From Escherichia phage BEK1-1, in sequence record MN158212.1: a DNA stretch of 44,592 nt; one strand, written 5' to 3'. Of the stretch, positions 24,861-36,491 are shown one piece after another. The first letter of the stretch is position 1; each line of letters starts with the position of its first letter. A program made the translations under genes and the position numbers. The notes beneath the pieces are model-generated. The model was not told where the DNA came from, searched no databases, and saw only the letters and a list, made by a program, of their open reading frames with translations.

Positions 24861-24938
24861 TGGCGCTCCGCACTGGATTCGAACCAGTAACCTACGACTT
24901 AGAAGGTCGTTGCTACTATCCTATTGAGCTAGCAGAGC
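24861..24938 (-). tRNA. tRNA-Arg (anticodon UCU)
   Basis: Minus strand reads GCTCTGC...TAGCTCAATAGGATAG...ACGACCTTCTAAGTCGT...CTGGTTCGAATCCAG...GCGGAGC-G-CCA; acceptor stem pairs 7/7 (one G-U); anticodon loop CT-TCT-AA; T-loop GGTTCGAATCC. Confidence 0.85.
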
Positions 24939-31387: not shown

Positions 31388-32971
31388 ATGTTCGATTTCA
31401 ACGAAGATAAACTATCTGTTGAACAGGTTATGGCAATTGCTGCCGCAGAAAACCTCCCGCCCCTGCGCGTCGCCATTAATGCTAATGGCTATCGCCAGTC
31501 CCAGTCATTCTGGAAAGCACCAGTCGAGATTGATGCAGCTAATGACAAGTATCCAGTAATCTCACTAGGTAATGACATTGATGTTGTTGGTAAGCTGTCA
31601 GCTAATATTGCCCGATCTGTTCAGTTCCCTGAGTCGTCAGCTTACATGCACTTCCTGGGGTGTATTTCCGCTGCAATGCTGGGTCGATTTACTGTTGAGT
31701 ATCACGGAACGCAGCAACCGACTTCGCTTTACGTCGTAACAAGCCAGCCACCATCCACTGGTAAATCAGCCATTAACTCGCTATCGATTGCTCCAATGAT
31801 TGCTGAGACTCAGCGACTAAATGAAGTTAGAAAGCGTGAGCGCAAGAAAATTATGGCAAAACTATCTGCATTATCGAAAGAGATGAAACAGGAAAAATCT
31901 CCGTCAGAGATGGCCTCTCTTTTTGAGGAGAAGGAGGAGTTGGAGGAAAAACTCGAGAAACTATGCGATATCGTTTTCCCAGTATCAGATACCACACCAG
32001 AAGGTCTGGCCCGAATCAACAACCGCCAGGGCAACTTTGCTGTAATCTCTGATGAGGCAACGAGTGTAAACTCACTACTTGGCATGACCTATGGTGACGG
32101 CTCAAAGAAAACGAACAGCGAACTGGTACTGAAGGCATGGGATGCTGGTAACGTATCTATCGCTCGCGCTAACGCTGAAAACAACATGAGTTTTGTTGCT
32201 ATGGGTTGCATCTCTGTAATTGCGCAGGATGAGACAATCAACGCTATCATGAACGCTGGCGCGCGTGGTATCGGTGTATCTGAGCGTTTCCTGCTTGTAC
32301 GTGAAAAGTCATTCCTTGGCGAGCGTGTATTCGTTGATGAAAATGGCGAATCGACTTATGAACCAATTGATGCCGGGTTGAAGGCTGATTACTTCCGTTT
32401 AGTTCACGAAATCATGAATGAGCAAGATGTAAAGTTGACGGTGAGCAACTCAGCGATGAAATATCTCAACCGTGCACGTCAGGAAATGGAGCCTCATCTT
32501 GCTGACGGCGGTAAGTATTCCCACACAATGTTGCGCGGCGCGCTGGGTAAGTTCGATAAACAGGCTATAAGGATTGCAGCCGTTCTTCACACAGTTCGCA
32601 ACTGGTTCAACCCTAACGGTGGGAGTCCACAGAAGTCCAGAGAAATCGAGCTCGACACCATGCAAGAGGCTGTGATTATGTTCCAGGAACTGAGTAAGAC
32701 TTATTTGTCATCTGCCAACGCTGCGGGTCACGCTGGCGACAATGCAGAGATGAATAAGCTGATTGATATCCTGATTAAGCAAGGCAAAAACGGGAAAGGA
32801 GTAGTAGGTATTCGTTCGCTATATGAAGCGGCTCGCAAGGTTAAGCCATTCGAGGCTCAGGCTGGAGTGATGACGAAGATTAAAGATCACCTGCTGCCAA
32901 TGCTTGATGAGAAAAACTATACGTGCCTGATTGGTGATAAGGTTTACATTAATCCGCGACTTCTGGGGTGA
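31388..32971 (+). CDS. P-loop NTPase-like protein (527 aa), long paralogue of ORF 28380..28904
   Basis: Walker-A-like ...TSQPPSTGKSAI..., Walker-B-like ...FAVISDEAT... about 100 aa later; N- and C-terminal about 45 and 65 aa match the 174-aa protein. Confidence 0.5.
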   Translation: MFDFNEDKLSVEQVMAIAAAENLPPLRVAINANGYRQSQSFWKAPVEIDAANDKYPVISLGNDIDVVGKLSANIARSVQFPESSAYMHFLGCISAAMLGRFTVEYHGTQQPTSLYVVTSQPPSTGKSAINSLSIAPMIAETQRLNEVRKRERKKIMAKLSALSKEMKQEKSPSEMASLFEEKEELEEKLEKLCDIVFPVSDTTPEGLARINNRQGNFAVISDEATSVNSLLGMTYGDGSKKTNSELVLKAWDAGNVSIARANAENNMSFVAMGCISVIAQDETINAIMNAGARGIGVSERFLLVREKSFLGERVFVDENGESTYEPIDAGLKADYFRLVHEIMNEQDVKLTVSNSAMKYLNRARQEMEPHLADGGKYSHTMLRGALGKFDKQAIRIAAVLHTVRNWFNPNGGSPQKSREIELDTMQEAVIMFQELSKTYLSSANAAGHAGDNAEMNKLIDILIKQGKNGKGVVGIRSLYEAARKVKPFEAQAGVMTKIKDHLLPMLDEKNYTCLIGDKVYINPRLLG

Positions 32972-32974
32972 TGA

Positions 32975-33310
32975 ATGTTCATTTTGGATTTATACCGCTT
33001 CTGTGAGTCGTATTCATACTTTACGCGTCAGCATTTGGCGCGATTCATCTACCAACATAAGGACTCCCAGAGATTCAGTAAAGCGGCGGGGTTATCTCAT
33101 AGAGAGTTTTGCAGCGCGGCTTCAAAGGAGTTTTGCGCAAAGATGTTAACTGCTGGATACATTGATGGTAAGTGTGGTGAGTTTGTTAGCAAGGGGAGTT
33201 TGAAAAGGCCATTTGATTTCAACTTCGAGGCGCTTGGCGGGTATCAGAGCAAGTACATAAAGGAGATGATGAATATAGGAACAATGACTGACGATGAGTT
33301 ATTTGGGTAA
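32975..33310 (+). CDS. hypothetical protein (111 aa)
   Basis: ORF directly after the P-loop gene; followed by a terminator. Confidence 0.4.
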   Translation: MFILDLYRFCESYSYFTRQHLARFIYQHKDSQRFSKAAGLSHREFCSAASKEFCAKMLTAGYIDGKCGEFVSKGSLKRPFDFNFEALGGYQSKYIKEMMNIGTMTDDELFG

Positions 33311-33315
33311 AAATA

Positions 33316-33338
33316 TAGCCTCCATTAGGAGGCTTTTT
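33316..33338. terminator. bidirectional intrinsic terminator between convergent genes
   Basis: AGCCTCC-ATTA-GGAGGCT followed by TTTTTTACG; A/T run on the other strand. Confidence 0.7.
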
Positions 33339-33714
33339 TACGCCTTAAGATTAAGGTCAGGAGAATCAGAACAAGCAACCCCATAGCTCCTGTTCCAACC
33401 CACGGAAGCGCTGATGATTCGTTATTGGTAATTTCAATCTTTTCGGCAGTGATTGTTGAGGCCTTAATCGAATTGTCGGCAGTCTTTTTTCCGCTCGAGC
33501 TATCCAGAGAGCCTACGCTAGAATCCTTAACGGAAGCATCGCTGGAGTTACTGGAGTCAACCCTGTTCGTTAACCCGACACCAACCTTATTGTTCTCTGC
33601 ACCAGCTTGAGCGCTAATCTCTGGCTTACTGCCAATTAAACCAGTCAGCGCAGATGTTGCTGAACATCCAGATAAAGCTACGCACATTACTAACGCTGCA
33701 ATCCGCTTAAGCAT
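33325..33714 (-). CDS. unimolecular spanin (u-spanin, T1 gp11-type)
   Basis: N-terminal lipoprotein signal with lipobox LSGC and C-terminal transmembrane helix plus RRKKAS; Ser-rich middle; overlaps the endolysin gene end. Confidence 0.65.
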   Translation of the reverse strand: MLKRIAALVMCVALSGCSATSALTGLIGSKPEISAQAGAENNKVGVGLTNRVDSSNSSDASVKDSSVGSLDSSSGKKTADNSIKASTITAEKIEITNNESSALPWVGTGAMGLLVLILLTLILRRKKAS

Positions 33715-34175
33715 AACTTAATCTCCTCATTCCTGCGGTTTACCAAGCCCTTAACCACAACCCTCTTGCCATTAACGGTGGCTTTATTCCACATCCCGAG
33801 AGCCTTGCAGCCCTGCTCAATCTTACCCTGGTTAATTAACTTAACGGCAGTGGATCTCCTCATTGCAGAGCCACCAACATTATAGCTAAAGCTGATTAAC
33901 GCAGCTCTTGTCTGCGGTGCTATGGGGTAGGTAACCGCATCCTGAACATACTTAGCATGAATCTGGATGTGCTTCTCCAGCAGATTGCGGCACTCCCTGT
34001 TGCTGTATGTTTTACCCCAGACCACATCTGGACCGGTAATACCTGAACAAACTGTAGGTATTCCGGCAATGTCCATGTACGGCTTGTTCTCCACGCCCTC
34101 AACGAGCTCAATAAGCGGCGCTGCGATGTATATTGCTGCAGCCGTAGCCGAGCTAATTAGCAGCTTCTGCTTCAT
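33690..34175 (-). CDS. SAR endolysin (T4-type lysozyme fold, GH24-like)
   Basis: N-terminal weakly hydrophobic segment LLISSATAAAIYIAAPLI followed by E-x8-D-x5-T (E..VENKPYMD.IAGIPT). Confidence 0.7.
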   Translation of the reverse strand: MKQKLLISSATAAAIYIAAPLIELVEGVENKPYMDIAGIPTVCSGITGPDVVWGKTYSNRECRNLLEKHIQIHAKYVQDAVTYPIAPQTRAALISFSYNVGGSAMRRSTAVKLINQGKIEQGCKALGMWNKATVNGKRVVVKGLVNRRNEEIKLCLSGLQR

Positions 34176-34391
34176 TTACTTGCTCCTTATATTGATTGCT
34201 GTTTTCAAGTCTCCCGATTCAAGAGCCCGCCTGATAGCTTGACTATCCTTATACTTCCAGTAAGCACCCCAAACTCCAAAAATGATTAGAGCGATAAGGC
34301 TGATTATTGCTATAGTCATTTGACCAGTTGCTGCGCCAGTTACCGCAGCACCTCCTGTTGATGCCGTAGCGGCGTTAATTACTTCCCTCAT
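34176..34391 (-). CDS. holin (pinholin-like, two hydrophobic segments)
   Basis: Start at internal ATG (MREVIN...) after GGTGGA; Gly/Ala-rich first segment then AIISLIALIIFGVWGAYW; immediately upstream of the endolysin. Confidence 0.55.
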   Translation of the reverse strand: MREVINAATASTGGAAVTGAATGQMTIAIISLIALIIFGVWGAYWKYKDSQAIRRALESGDLKTAINIRSK

Positions 34392-34467
34392 GTGATCCAC
34401 CTTTATGTATTTGTCAATGTTTAAGTTAATAAAAGAATGATACATTAGCACCGCTCGGAAAAGAAGC

Positions 34468-34495
34468 ATAAAAAAAGGGAGCCAAAAGGCTCCCC
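34468..34495 (-). terminator. intrinsic terminator upstream of the lysis cassette
   Basis: Minus strand GGGAGCC-TTTT-GGCTCCC followed by TTTTTTTATGC. Confidence 0.7.
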
Positions 34496-34521
34496 GCTTG
34501 TAACACTATGTTTTAGATACA

Positions 34522-34698
34522 CTAGTCAGCGATAATAAATTCAACTAACGAGCCATCAATCGGCGCTAAAATGTGCGTCATATCGTCGCCATAAATCTTG
34601 TAGTATCCATCGCCCTGGTACTCTGCGTTGTACGGCTGGTTAACTGTAAATGGCAGTGTCTTGGAATTGTTTTTGGTGCAATAAATCATTTTAGTCAT
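34522..34698 (-). CDS. hypothetical protein (58 aa)
   Basis: Below the track cutoff; RBS GAGGAAACACAAAATG; box promoter upstream. Confidence 0.35.
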   Translation of the reverse strand: MTKMIYCTKNNSKTLPFTVNQPYNAEYQGDGYYKIYGDDMTHILAPIDGSLVEFIIAD

Positions 34699-34739: not shown

Positions 34740-34786
34740 ATTATGCCGCATTTCTACGGCATTAGTTAGGCAAAAAGTGCTATTTA
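34740..34786 (-). promoter_or_regulatory. box promoter, half-box variant (AAATAGCAC..., 20 nt, CATAAT, leader ACCACATCGAAACGAG)
   Basis: Direct reading of the reverse complement. Confidence 0.45.
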
Positions 34787-35265
34787 CCGTGCCTCTCTGT
34801 GAATTCTGGGTTACCCTCGTAAACTGACTTCGCATATGATACTGCTTCTTCTTTTGTGTAGAAGGTTTTGTAAACCCTGTTTTTATCAATCTGAATTTGA
34901 ACAAGCCACGGCTTTCCATCCCTTTTTATCTTATTTATGAAGTAAACACCTGTAACTCCTGATGTGTTATCCTTTCTCATAGCTGCATTCTTGCAGTTAA
35001 CCCATCTATCTACGCATCTCAAATTCTCTATCCGATTATCGTGCTTAACTCCATTAATGTGATCGATTTCCATACCTTTAGGGACTTCTCCGTTATGCAT
35101 TTCCCATATTACTCGATGGGCAAAAGTCATCTTTGAAAACAGTTTAGTCCTAACGTACCCCCTCAAATCAATATACCCAGCCTTAACTCCGTTATAAGAT
35201 GATACCCTGTGGTTCTTTCTGTACAAATCACCATTTGAATATTCGTAATAATCGTGCCAATTCAT
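34780..35265 (-). CDS. HNH homing endonuclease with AP2-like DNA-binding domain
   Basis: ...AHRVIWEMH...EIDHINGVKHDNRIENLR... (HNH) and ...SGVTGVYF...KPWLVQI...KTFYTKEEA... (AP2-like). Confidence 0.7.
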   Translation of the reverse strand: MNWHDYYEYSNGDLYRKNHRVSSYNGVKAGYIDLRGYVRTKLFSKMTFAHRVIWEMHNGEVPKGMEIDHINGVKHDNRIENLRCVDRWVNCKNAAMRKDNTSGVTGVYFINKIKRDGKPWLVQIQIDKNRVYKTFYTKEEAVSYAKSVYEGNPEFTERHGK

Positions 35266-35293: not shown

Positions 35294-35339
35294 ATAATAG
35301 CCGCTTTCGCGGCTACTGTTTTAACAAAAGGTGCTATTA
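35294..35339 (-). promoter_or_regulatory. box promoter, variant, with hairpin TAGCCGC-GAAA-GCGGCTA inside the 20-nt spacer
   Basis: Direct reading; the hairpin may also terminate transcripts from the upstream phosphoesterase gene. Confidence 0.4.
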
Positions 35340-36491
35340 GTATTTGGATCCAGGGTTTGCGTCACGAAGCATTTCAACAGGAATGCTCACTCGACTAACT
35401 TCTCCATACTTCTTGTGATACGTAATAACGTTTGCACTACGCCCAGAGAAGTACCCGCCCTTGGATGAGTACTCATCTTTTGCAGCAAGTGTCTGGTGTT
35501 GCTCAATAATCATCAAGCTAGTTTCCTTAACCGCTCTGTGGTGCAGGTGGCCTAGGTGCGTGTATGCGAACTTGGATTTACCAAACATCTCACGATACTT
35601 AGCAATTATTGCTGATTCAACTCTGGAGAAGTTAGCGCAATGCCCGTGATGCATGGCAATCATAACGTCTCCAAATTCATATGCGTAGTAAGGGGAAACT
35701 TCGCGATTCACTTCAACTCGCTCATTTTCAATAAATACTTCATGAAACATCTCGCGCAACCATAATGAAGATACCGGGTTGTGATTTCCCTCACAAATCA
35801 ATAGCTTAACCTTTTTATGTTTAACCAGGCACATGCTTATGGCTGCCTTGATTAATTTAATCTGAGTCCGAATCATTCGGAATAATCTAGTATCAGCAGA
35901 AAGAATGTGACCACTCATTGGGGTTACAGCTTTCATTGAGTCGTAGTGAGCCTCATCCCCTAAAAAGTTAATTATGCATTCATCGCTGTTCGGGCTCATT
36001 GCCACGGCGCTGCTGAACCAGTCCAATGCTAATTTCTCAGCAATCTTGGTGTCATAATTGTCACCACCTTCCTCTGCGCAAGCAAGCATTCCAATGTGAT
36101 GGTCTGTGATGGTGTAGAGGTTGAGAATGTCAGAATTAGTTATCTCACCTGAGTGGTTAACAGCATCGTACTTAGGTAGCTCTTTCTTAAGCTCCTCAAC
36201 AACAATTTGCATCAGCTCTTGCTGTCGCTCCTTGTCAACTTCTGATTTAACCCACTGACCTTTAATCTCACCATCGGCACCAATTAAGCTAGACACACCT
36301 TTGACAGCGTAACCTTGAGGAATTAGGTTGCTTACATCACGGCCGTGCCCCTCACCCCGTTTTGCCAGCTTACTACGACGCAATTCAACGTTGCGAATGT
36401 TCATTCCGTACTTCTCTGCGATTGCCTTGTTGGTCATTCCATTCGCCAGCTCTTCGCGTAGTTGTTCGTTGGTGATTTTTGCAGTTGCCAT
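35337..36491 (-). CDS. calcineurin-like metallophosphoesterase with N-terminal helix-turn-helix domain
   Basis: N-terminal ...MTNKAIAEKYGMNIRNVELRR... (HTH-like); phosphoesterase-like motifs ...ITDHHIG..., ...GDEAH..., ...EGNHN..., ...MHHGH..., ...GHLHH... Confidence 0.55.
   Translation of the reverse strand: MATAKITNEQLREELANGMTNKAIAEKYGMNIRNVELRRSKLAKRGEGHGRDVSNLIPQGYAVKGVSSLIGADGEIKGQWVKSEVDKERQQELMQIVVEELKKELPKYDAVNHSGEITNSDILNLYTITDHHIGMLACAEEGGDNYDTKIAEKLALDWFSSAVAMSPNSDECIINFLGDEAHYDSMKAVTPMSGHILSADTRLFRMIRTQIKLIKAAISMCLVKHKKVKLLICEGNHNPVSSLWLREMFHEVFIENERVEVNREVSPYYAYEFGDVMIAMHHGHCANFSRVESAIIAKYREMFGKSKFAYTHLGHLHHRAVKETSLMIIEQHQTLAAKDEYSSKGGYFSGRSANVITYHKKYGEVSRVSIPVEMLRDANPGSKY

Follow-up and report, generated by a model that had tools for sequence, protein, structure and literature searches.

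Among the described systems closest to the locus considered here, R21 of phage 21 is the structurally characterised prototype of the SAR endolysins, EssD of DLP12 is a homologue of S21, the pinholin of phage 21, and gp11 of phage T1 is the experimentally defined prototype of the u-spanins. According to the Young laboratory, a SAR domain is recognised by two or three basic residues followed by roughly 18–20 uncharged, weakly hydrophobic residues rich in Gly, Ala, Ser and Thr (PMC9239132), the same paper treating as decisive that the enzyme stays tethered and inactive until depolarisation and is released by a pinholin. Pinholins on the S21 68 model have two transmembrane domains (N-in, C-in), the first weakly hydrophobic and SAR-like; their holes are of nanometre scale and serve SAR endolysins but not cytoplasmic ones. 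T1 gene 11, alone in its family, has been shown to complement a lambda Rz/Rz1 defect, for which its lipidated Cys is needed (PMC6139136), and phage Rtp has been assigned to the T1gp11 u-spanin family, within cassettes built from a pinholin and a SAR endolysin (Kongari et al. 2018; PMC6139136 Table 5). The holin of the T1 family is likewise called a pinholin in the literature (PMC6139136, PMC11447400, PMC13164509), and the searchable literature yielded no experiments on the holin or the endolysin of any member of this family. The combination of holin, SAR endolysin and u-spanin is thus ordinary for the Drexlerviridae and already part of the published record.

The window analysed here is a stretch of 44,592 nucleotides from Escherichia phage BEK1-1 (MN158212.1), an Rtp-like coliphage of the Drexlerviridae with sequenced relatives that are about 90% identical. 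On its minus strand, open reading frame calls delimit a lysis cassette of three genes, running from position 34391 down to 33325 and encoding in turn a holin (34391..34176), an endolysin (34175..33690) and a u-spanin (33714..33325); the original prediction had described three overlapping or adjacent minus-strand genes, and its coordinates are exact to the base. A megablast search with the cassette region matched 98 phage records, with 86–92% identity to the lysis regions of Rtp-like coliphages and about 88% nucleotide identity to Rtp, and in the Rtp-like coliphages the genes carry the labels holin, endolysin or SAR endolysin, and u-spanin. Each product also matches a profile of the PHROG collection (PHROG 2877, holin, 1.7e-37; 2.2e-48 for the endolysin; PHROG 1804, Rz-like spanin, 1.7e-48). 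Since all three open reading frames have strong homologues, the cassette is not a chance pattern. Synteny with T1 is complete in the order gp14-gp13-gp12-gp11-terminator, and the proteins are orthologous, with identities of 56% to the holin gp13, 46% to the endolysin gp12 and 36% to gp11. We regard it as very probable that the three genes form the late lysis cassette of a T1-family siphophage of the Rtp type; the cassette and its sequence features are seen directly, its mechanism is inferred from characterised homologues.

The holin gene (34176..34391, minus strand) encodes a 71-residue protein of the T1 gp13 family, a putative pinholin, and its best start is the ATG at 34391, with the stop codon TAA at 34178..34176 and the endolysin ATG at 34175 directly after it. 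A Shine-Dalgarno sequence, AAGGTGG, can be read at 34397..34403 (minus strand), 5 nt before this ATG, and the 71-residue product aligns end to end with T1 gp13 and with the PHROG holin model (1–71 of 71). A longer product of 97 residues, starting at the ATG at 34469, was rejected: its frame is not conserved, it has no ribosome-binding site and it would start inside the T-tract of the upstream terminator. Compared with phage SU57, the sequence immediately before the ATG at 34391 has a 1-nt indel. The holin family occurs in 822 phage records and is separate from S21 (PHROG 2877; PF27028); Pfam returned only sub-threshold matches for the holin (DUF4234, TatA), and no NCBIfam model matched either the holin or the DUF7244 protein encoded upstream. 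Protein searches with the holin, one word-indexed and one exhaustive on representatives, gave 11 matches each, among which about eight are true family representatives at 50% identity, too few for covariation to be usable.

Two hydrophobic segments, the first of them rich in Gly and Ala, had been predicted for this small protein, and both are present. Residues 4–23, VINAATASTGGAAVTGAATG (34323..34382, minus strand), form a candidate SAR-like first transmembrane domain (TMD1), uncharged and consisting to 80% of Gly, Ala, Ser and Thr; the segment lacks charge in nearly all family members and follows a conserved, net-neutral start, M-[RK]-[ED]. Residues 25–45 (34257..34319, minus strand) form a strongly hydrophobic TMD, with Kyte-Doolittle (KD) values of up to 2.6 and a summed dGapp below 0, which is modelled by AlphaFold2 as a helix with a pLDDT of 82–89. 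It carries a motif, F38-G39-x-W-G42, in which F38 is invariant and G39 and G42 are near-invariant in the family, and it is followed by a basic, amphipathic tail that is predicted to be cytoplasmic. The protein is small, and its gene directly precedes that of a SAR endolysin, as is the case for pinholins. BLASTP found no similarity between it and the S21/EssD pinholins (E 0.49), and a Foldseek search of viral structures with the holin model, which is itself of moderate to low confidence, gave no match at E <= 0.001. Without homology to S21, the holin therefore stands outside the S21 family and is a functional analogue at most. "Pinholin-like", the term of the original prediction, agrees both with the literature naming of the T1-family holin and with the composition of the first segment, and its hedge is apt, two-TMD topology and pinhole formation being putative throughout this holin family.

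The endolysin gene (33690..34175, minus strand) encodes a 161-residue GH24 lysozyme of the R21 type (Pfam Phage_lysozyme PF00959, 2.2e-35), for which the nearest solved structures are RrrD (4zpu, E 2e-27) and R21 (3hde/3hdf, E 1e-26), at 43–45% identity. Its predicted SAR domain comprises residues 5–22, LLISSATAAAIYIAAPLI (34110..34163, minus strand), preceded by K2 and K4; the segment is 18 residues long and uncharged, half of it is Ala, Ser or Thr (9 of the 18), its KD value is 1.94, and in the alignment it falls on the SAR region of RrrD. This N-terminus fits the Young laboratory description (PMC9239132). The segment ends three residues before the catalytic Glu26, and the alignment places the motif E26-x8-D35-x5-T41 at 34053..34100 (minus strand), with E26, D35 and T41 invariant in the four sequences compared (the window protein, SU57, T1 gp12 and RrrD). 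Close relatives have been deposited as "SAR endolysin". The anticipated SAR-like N-terminus and catalytic spacing are thus both borne out, and assignment as a SAR endolysin is supported, with membrane tethering and release as predicted properties.

The third gene (33325..33714, minus strand) encodes a 129-residue protein of the T1 gp11 family; its ATG at 33714 creates a 25-nt overlap with the 3' end of the endolysin gene. BLASTP aligns the product with T1 gp11 over nearly its full length (36% identity, E 2e-24), and its relatives are annotated as u-spanins, the NCBIfam search returning only "spanin2", below threshold. At the N-terminus stands a lipoprotein signal peptide, MLKRIAALVMCVALSG, with a predicted lipidated Cys17 (33664..33714, minus strand); at the level of the motif, the lipobox is L14-S15-G16-C17, with Ser18 rather than Asp at position +2. 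Cys17 is invariant in the relatives, the lipobox reads LSGC or LTGC in 113 of 121, and no further Cys follows Cys17 here, as is the case in 108 of 113 relatives. At the other end, residues 105–123 (33346..33402, minus strand) form a TMD (KD 2.33, dGapp -2.1) followed by RRKKAS, and the AlphaFold2 model has a helix at 104–127 with a pLDDT of about 86. A beta-rich periplasmic domain, with a short helix ahead of at least four strands, has been described for the gp11 family; for this part the same model gives a short helix at 20–26 and no strands in 28–100, at a pLDDT below 50 and from a shallow alignment (78–97% identity). Among the open reading frames in other frames within the cassette, searched as candidates for a second spanin or lipoprotein, none has a lipobox. 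The gene is the last of the cassette, adjoins the endolysin gene and is followed by a terminator. Lipobox and C-terminal TMD give the protein the architecture of T1 gp11, and together with the homology they uphold the earlier call of a T1 gp11-type u-spanin, an assignment that is supported at the sequence level, spanin function being predicted.

The cassette is framed by intrinsic terminators. The upstream one (34466..34495, minus strand) consists of a hairpin at 34495..34476 and a T-tract; its stem has 8 bp, of which 6 are GC pairs, followed by the run of T, and its folding energy of -17.7 kcal/mol (z -3.4) agrees with the strong terminator that had been noted at 34468..34495. It is kept in phage SU57 and closes the gene of the DUF7244 protein (34522..34698, minus strand; 58 residues, Pfam DUF7244 3.4e-29), a homologue of T1 gp14 with 44% identity. 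A standalone, SH3-like DUF7244 protein has been hypothesised to be a component of the Drexlerviridae lysis module (PMC13164509), and the gene is possibly an accessory member of the module here. The downstream terminator (33307..33339), proposed to be bidirectional, indeed has T-tracts on both strands of its hairpin (33317..33334; z -4.6 and -3.6) and is common to the cassette and a convergent plus-strand gene; its stem takes in the final two codons and the stop codon of the u-spanin gene. A scan of the minus strand for sigma-70-like promoters from the upstream terminator to the holin gene detected none, and the cassette may be transcribed by read-through or from a promoter missed by the scan. 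The holin ATG is preceded, at a distance of about 24 nt, by a perfect TTGACA, which is not accompanied by a usable -10 element.

Taken with the characterised homologues, these features suggest the following course of lysis. The 71-residue holin would build up in the inner membrane, with the TMD at 25–45 as its anchor and the basic tail in the cytoplasm, and on reaching a critical level would trigger and collapse the proton-motive force; most likely its holes would be small and the N-terminal segment, rich in Gly, Ala and Thr, would come to lie in the periplasm. The endolysin, exported by Sec, would wait in inactive form at the inner membrane, on its periplasmic side, tethered there by its SAR segment (residues 5–22), until depolarisation lets this segment leave the bilayer, upon which the enzyme would refold and cut the peptidoglycan as a muramidase of the T4/R21 type. 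The u-spanin would be processed by signal peptidase II at LSG|C, lipidated on Cys17 and, with Ser at +2, sorted to the outer membrane, while its C-terminal TMD would keep its place in the inner membrane; after loss of the peptidoglycan mesh, the u-spanins could move, oligomerise and fuse or disrupt the outer membrane, releasing the virions.

The step of this scheme that admits the most serious rival is the behaviour of the holin, for the cassette could be as described and yet contain a single-pass holin in N-out/C-in orientation, with its first 24 residues, rich in Gly, Ala and Thr, translocated directly and never residing in the bilayer. The AlphaFold2 model has one continuous helix from residue 15 to 58, with no hairpin or turn at G23-Q24, and the spacing of about 2 residues between the segments leaves little of a loop; the summed dGapp of the first segment is about +6 to +7 kcal/mol, T1 gp13 has been deposited as "contains single transmembrane domain", and homology to S21/EssD is absent. 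SAR endolysins, moreover, also work with holins other than pinholins, as indicated in PMC9239132 and by the title of a preprint on N4. Against this, the N-terminal part of the model has a pLDDT of only about 51, and TMD1 of the S21 family, a proven transmembrane domain, has still lower hydrophobicity by the same scales (peak KD 0.56 for EssD, compared with 0.95 for the holin segment), so weak hydrophobicity is compatible with transient insertion of the first segment. A charge-free stretch of 20 residues is, furthermore, conserved in the family, and specialists class the T1-family holins as two-TMD pinholins. On balance we consider the single-pass topology somewhat unlikely. We likewise judge it unlikely that PHROG 2877 represents a distinct single-pass N-out/C-in class, in which a conserved, uncharged periplasmic tail rich in Gly, Ala and Thr regulates triggering and the cytoplasmic, SH3-like DUF7244 protein acts as a fourth, regulatory lysis component.

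For the other two genes the rival explanations fare far worse than for the pinholin-like holin. A signal peptide, too, has basic residues ahead of a hydrophobic stretch, and the endolysin might accordingly be a soluble periplasmic lysozyme with a cleavable Sec signal peptide and some other regulation. Its candidate cleavage sites speak against this, A12-A13-A14 coming after only about 7 residues of h-region and A18-A19 being followed by Pro20; by rule, cleavage by signal peptidase I is disfavoured because the only late AxA-like site precedes this proline. The hydrophobic segment also leads straight into the catalytic domain at E26, the homology to R21 and RrrD reaches into it, R21 is the SAR prototype and the relatives are annotated as SAR endolysins, all of which makes cleavage very improbable and favours the SAR endolysin. 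Small exclusion lipoproteins are known in this phage family, T1 Cor among them, and the third gene could in principle encode a lipoprotein of such another role, for instance in superinfection exclusion, rather than a spanin; its homology, however, is to T1 gp11 and not to Cor, a C-terminal TMD is present besides the lipobox, the gene ends the lysis cassette and overlaps the endolysin gene translationally, and T1 gene 11 complements the lambda Rz/Rz1 defect (PMC6139136). We therefore hold a role other than that of a u-spanin to be extremely improbable.

Beyond the correct annotation of this genome the significance of the locus is slight. Because the genome carries the canonical Drexlerviridae module, the names holin (putative pinholin), SAR endolysin and u-spanin can be given to its genes confidently; the membrane topology of the holin, how large its holes are and how the periplasmic domain of the u-spanin brings about fusion are questions for the whole T1-type family rather than for this window.

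The gene order of the cassette is that of gp13-gp12-gp11 in T1 and rtp63-rtp64-rtp65 in Rtp, and the flanks correspond as well, with the DUF7244/gp14 gene and an HNH gene upstream and a terminator and convergent genes downstream. Protein lengths match (71, 161–162 and 129–133 residues), and the lipobox is LSGC in T1 gp11 too. Here the endolysin gene shares 25 nt with the spanin gene, compared with 1 nt in T1, and the hydrophobicity of the SAR segment exceeds that of its T1 counterpart (KD 1.7–1.9 against 1.1); the remaining differences from T1 and Rtp are ordinary sequence ones, with no functional difference apparent. With phage 21 and DLP12 the relationship varies along the cassette. R21 and RrrD are true homologues of the endolysin, sharing E-x8-D-x5-T and an uncharged N-terminal anchor, although R21 has about 6 more residues in the linker between its SAR segment and the catalytic Glu. 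S21 68 and EssD have the same layout as the holin (71 residues, a net-neutral N-terminus, a segment rich in Gly, Ala, Ser and Thr, and a basic tail behind a strong TMD), but the loop between the segments is about 2 residues here compared with 7 in S21, and the dual-start antiholin of the phage 21 system is absent. Outer-membrane disruption would fall to a u-spanin here and falls to the two-component Rz/Rz1 (rzpD/rzoD) in phage 21 and DLP12. Relative to lambda Rz/Rz1, to which its sequence is unrelated, the u-spanin lacks periplasmic cysteines and predicted coiled coils and carries both membrane anchors in a single polypeptide.

In Escherichia phage BEK1-1, the ORF listing and a direct reading of the strand agree on three overlapping or adjacent minus-strand lysis genes: a holin gene (34391..34176, 71 aa), an endolysin gene (34175..33690, 161 aa), and a unimolecular spanin (u-spanin) gene (33714..33325, 129 aa). 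Direct reading also places an AAGGTGG ribosome-binding site 5 nt upstream of the holin ATG and assigns a GAGGAG ribosome-binding site to the u-spanin gene, while the endolysin ATG abuts the holin stop codon and the endolysin and u-spanin genes overlap by 25 nt. A 97-aa holin ORF from the ATG at 34469 was rejected: it starts within the terminator T-tract, and because a 1-nt indel relative to the related phage SU57 breaks its frame, the 71-aa form, which aligns end to end with T1 gp13 and with the PHROG holin profile, is taken as the gene. The consensus scan locates a terminator upstream (34495..34476 plus a T-run, minus strand) and a hairpin downstream (33317..33334, both strands), and RNA folding assigns these elements energies of -17.7, -13.8, and -12.5 kcal/mol (z-scores between -3.4 and -4.6). 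Since ORF listing, terminator scan, and RNA folding agree, the original prediction of three such genes between a strong upstream and a bidirectional downstream terminator is correct in every particular of what it observed. On the coding strand between terminator and holin start (34392..34475, minus), the scan found no sigma-70-like promoter; a perfect TTGACA 5' of the holin is conserved with SU57, but it has no -10 element at the proper spacing. T1 likewise has a hairpin at the position equivalent to the upstream terminator, and the cassette may rely on read-through of the terminator for its transcription.

The endolysin matches Pfam Phage_lysozyme (2.2e-35) and the PHROG endolysin profile (2.2e-48). 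R21, the endolysin of phage 21, is the structural prototype of the signal-anchor-release (SAR) endolysins, and its structures (3hde, 3hdf), together with that of the E. coli DLP12 homologue RrrD (4zpu), are the closest solved relatives. The SAR-like N-terminus proposed for the lysozyme is supported by K2 and K4 followed by LLISSATAAAIYIAAPLI, an 18-residue anchor without charge, in which 9 residues are Ala, Ser, or Thr and the mean Kyte-Doolittle value is 1.94, in line with a published description of SAR domains (PMC9239132). The proposed E-x8-D-x5-T catalytic spacing holds as well, with E26, D35, and T41, along with four cysteines, invariant in an alignment of the window endolysin, RrrD, T1 gp12, and the SU57 enzyme. 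A rule-based reading of the N-terminus, made without a predictor, finds no plausible signal peptidase I site, because the sole late Ala-x-Ala-like site precedes Pro20. The disulfide-caged type of SAR endolysin is represented by P1 Lyz; since the window anchor contains no Cys and the catalytic residue is Asp, the enzyme resembles R21 and not P1 Lyz, and on sequence-level grounds it belongs among the R21-type SAR endolysins. The gap between anchor and catalytic Glu is about 6 residues longer in R21, whereas here the anchor ends 3 residues before Glu26, so that in the tethered enzyme the catalytic Glu would lie at the surface of the membrane.

The u-spanin begins with MLKRIAALVMCVALSG followed by C17-S18, its LSGC lipobox being identical to that of T1 gp11, and ends in a strongly hydrophobic transmembrane domain (TMD; residues 105-123) and RRKKAS, the very combination of lipobox and C-terminal helix that had been predicted; Ser at +2 implies sorting to the outer membrane. 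Across the protein and 120 close relatives, Cys17 is invariant, LSGC or LTGC occurs in 113 of 121 sequences, and further Cys is absent from 108 of 113. Variation is densest in the signal peptide (mean entropy 0.86) and the TMD (0.65), and lower values (0.14-0.33) mark the periplasmic domain as more constrained. AlphaFold2 gives a confident helix for the TMD and weaker ones at the signal peptide and residues 20-26; the periplasmic domain has pLDDT <50, and the beta-rich family pattern is not readable from such a model. Kongari et al. 2018 (PMC6139136) reported that T1 gene 11 complements a lambda Rz/Rz1 defect, listed RTP among 28 members of the T1gp11 family, found no u-spanin with a periplasmic cysteine, and placed all members but two within pinholin/SAR-endolysin cassettes. 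The window protein agrees with this family in every feature by which membership can be judged from sequence. In a word-indexed search, the u-spanin fell into 460 distinct 90%-identity clusters and the holin into only 11, a gap that may be partly due to word-index sensitivity on the low-complexity holin.

The holin matches PHROG 2877 'holin' at full length (1.7e-37) and has homologues in 822 phage records, forming about 8 clusters at 50% identity. The family alignment reveals an M-[RK]-[ED] start that is net-neutral, a stretch at residues 4-23 that is free of charge and rich in Gly/Ala/Ser/Thr (80% in the window holin), a 'GQ' junction after this first segment, a strong TMD with F38 invariant and G39 and G42 near-invariant, and an amphipathic, basic tail (DS.AI..AL..GDL). 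Whether the weak first segment suits a pinholin was calibrated in a 17-residue window on EssD, the DLP12 homologue of the phage 21 pinholin S21: EssD TMD1 peaks at a Kyte-Doolittle value of 0.56 (dGapp ~ +6.5) and the window segment at 0.95 (dGapp ~ +6), so that a segment this weakly hydrophobic is entirely consistent with a TMD1 of the pinholin type. The pinholin-like reading fits the Gly/Ala-rich first segment, but a strict S21-like model is opposed by the lack of sequence similarity to EssD (E 0.49), a loop of about 2 residues against 7 in S21, and the absence of the S21 dual-start motif. AlphaFold2 also speaks against it by drawing a single continuous helix (15-58) and no hairpin, though with an N-terminal pLDDT of only ~51. 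Both models would end in one active topology: N-terminus periplasmic, TMD 25-45 in the membrane, basic tail cytoplasmic. On bioinformatic grounds, published genome papers have placed T1-family holins among the class II pinholins (PMC11447400; PMC13164509), and we found no experimental test of this in the literature. The window holin belongs to the T1 gp13 family; it is no member of the S21 family and can at best be an analogue of S21 in function.

Directly upstream of the cassette, with the strong terminator in between, lies a DUF7244 gene (34522..34698, minus; 58 aa; Pfam 3.4e-29), whose product, a T1 gp14 homologue, has no signal peptide or TMD. A 2026 paper proposes that it serves the Drexlerviridae lysis module as a standalone, SH3-like auxiliary (PMC13164509); for a cytoplasmic protein, a pre-lysis peptidoglycan-binding role would be puzzling. 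An HNH_3 homing-type endonuclease gene (34780..35265, minus; Pfam 2.8e-21) is flanked by this gene and a 384-aa ORF (35337..36491), whose position is held in T1 by the DNA-repair exonuclease gp16; in SU57 the corresponding spot is occupied by genes for an ATPase and a polynucleotide kinase, and a mosaic junction thus adjoins the lysis module. On the other side, the convergent genes for a DUF3987 protein (31388..32971, plus; 527 aa; Pfam 1.9e-41; annotated as helicase in SU57 and T1) and a 111-aa protein of PHROG 2794, unknown function (32975..33310, plus), have the bidirectional terminator in common with the u-spanin gene.

The genes, motifs, and homology are direct results, and the order of events would follow the phage 21 and T1 paradigms (PMC6139136; PMC9239132). 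Triggering of the holin would depolarise the inner membrane, upon which the SAR segment would exit the bilayer and the endolysin refold and degrade peptidoglycan; the u-spanin, anchored in both membranes through the peptidoglycan mesh, would then be freed to oligomerise and would fuse or disrupt the outer membrane.

The lysis region matches 98 phage records at 86-92% identity, almost all Rtp-like coliphages (Drexlerviridae, Braunvirinae), with Rtp itself at 88% nucleotide identity and the vB_EcoS-2005III group sharing about 90% identity with the window's 3' half. The best nucleotide match for 33200..34600 is 'Campylobacter phage A110b' (92.4%), and 'Pseudomonas phage PsgS01F' (90%) is also among the matches; both records are Rtp-like coliphage genomes, and the hosts in their names suggest that the deposited records were contaminated or mislabelled. 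A tRNA-Arg gene (anticodon TCT; 24861..24938, minus) is annotated in the closest relatives too. Relatives' records already name a holin, an endolysin or 'SAR endolysin', and an 'Rz-like spanin', 'u-spanin', or 'unimolecular spanin', and the whole interpretation, real but ordinary, is on record in the literature and in GenBank annotations. Residual novelty is only family-wide, concerning how the holin spans the membrane and how large its holes are, how the u-spanin acts, and what the DUF7244/SH3-like gene does, questions no more tractable from the window than from T1 itself. T1 has the same arrangement of HNH endonuclease, gp14, gp13 holin, gp12 endolysin, gp11 spanin, terminator, and convergent genes, and the window proteins match their T1 counterparts at 44% identity for the DUF7244 protein (E 9e-16), 56% for the holin (E 3e-31), 46% for the endolysin (E 2e-45), and 36% for the u-spanin (E 2e-24). 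As judged by homology, the genes of the cassette are, as a set, orthologous to those of the T1/Rtp lysis cassette.
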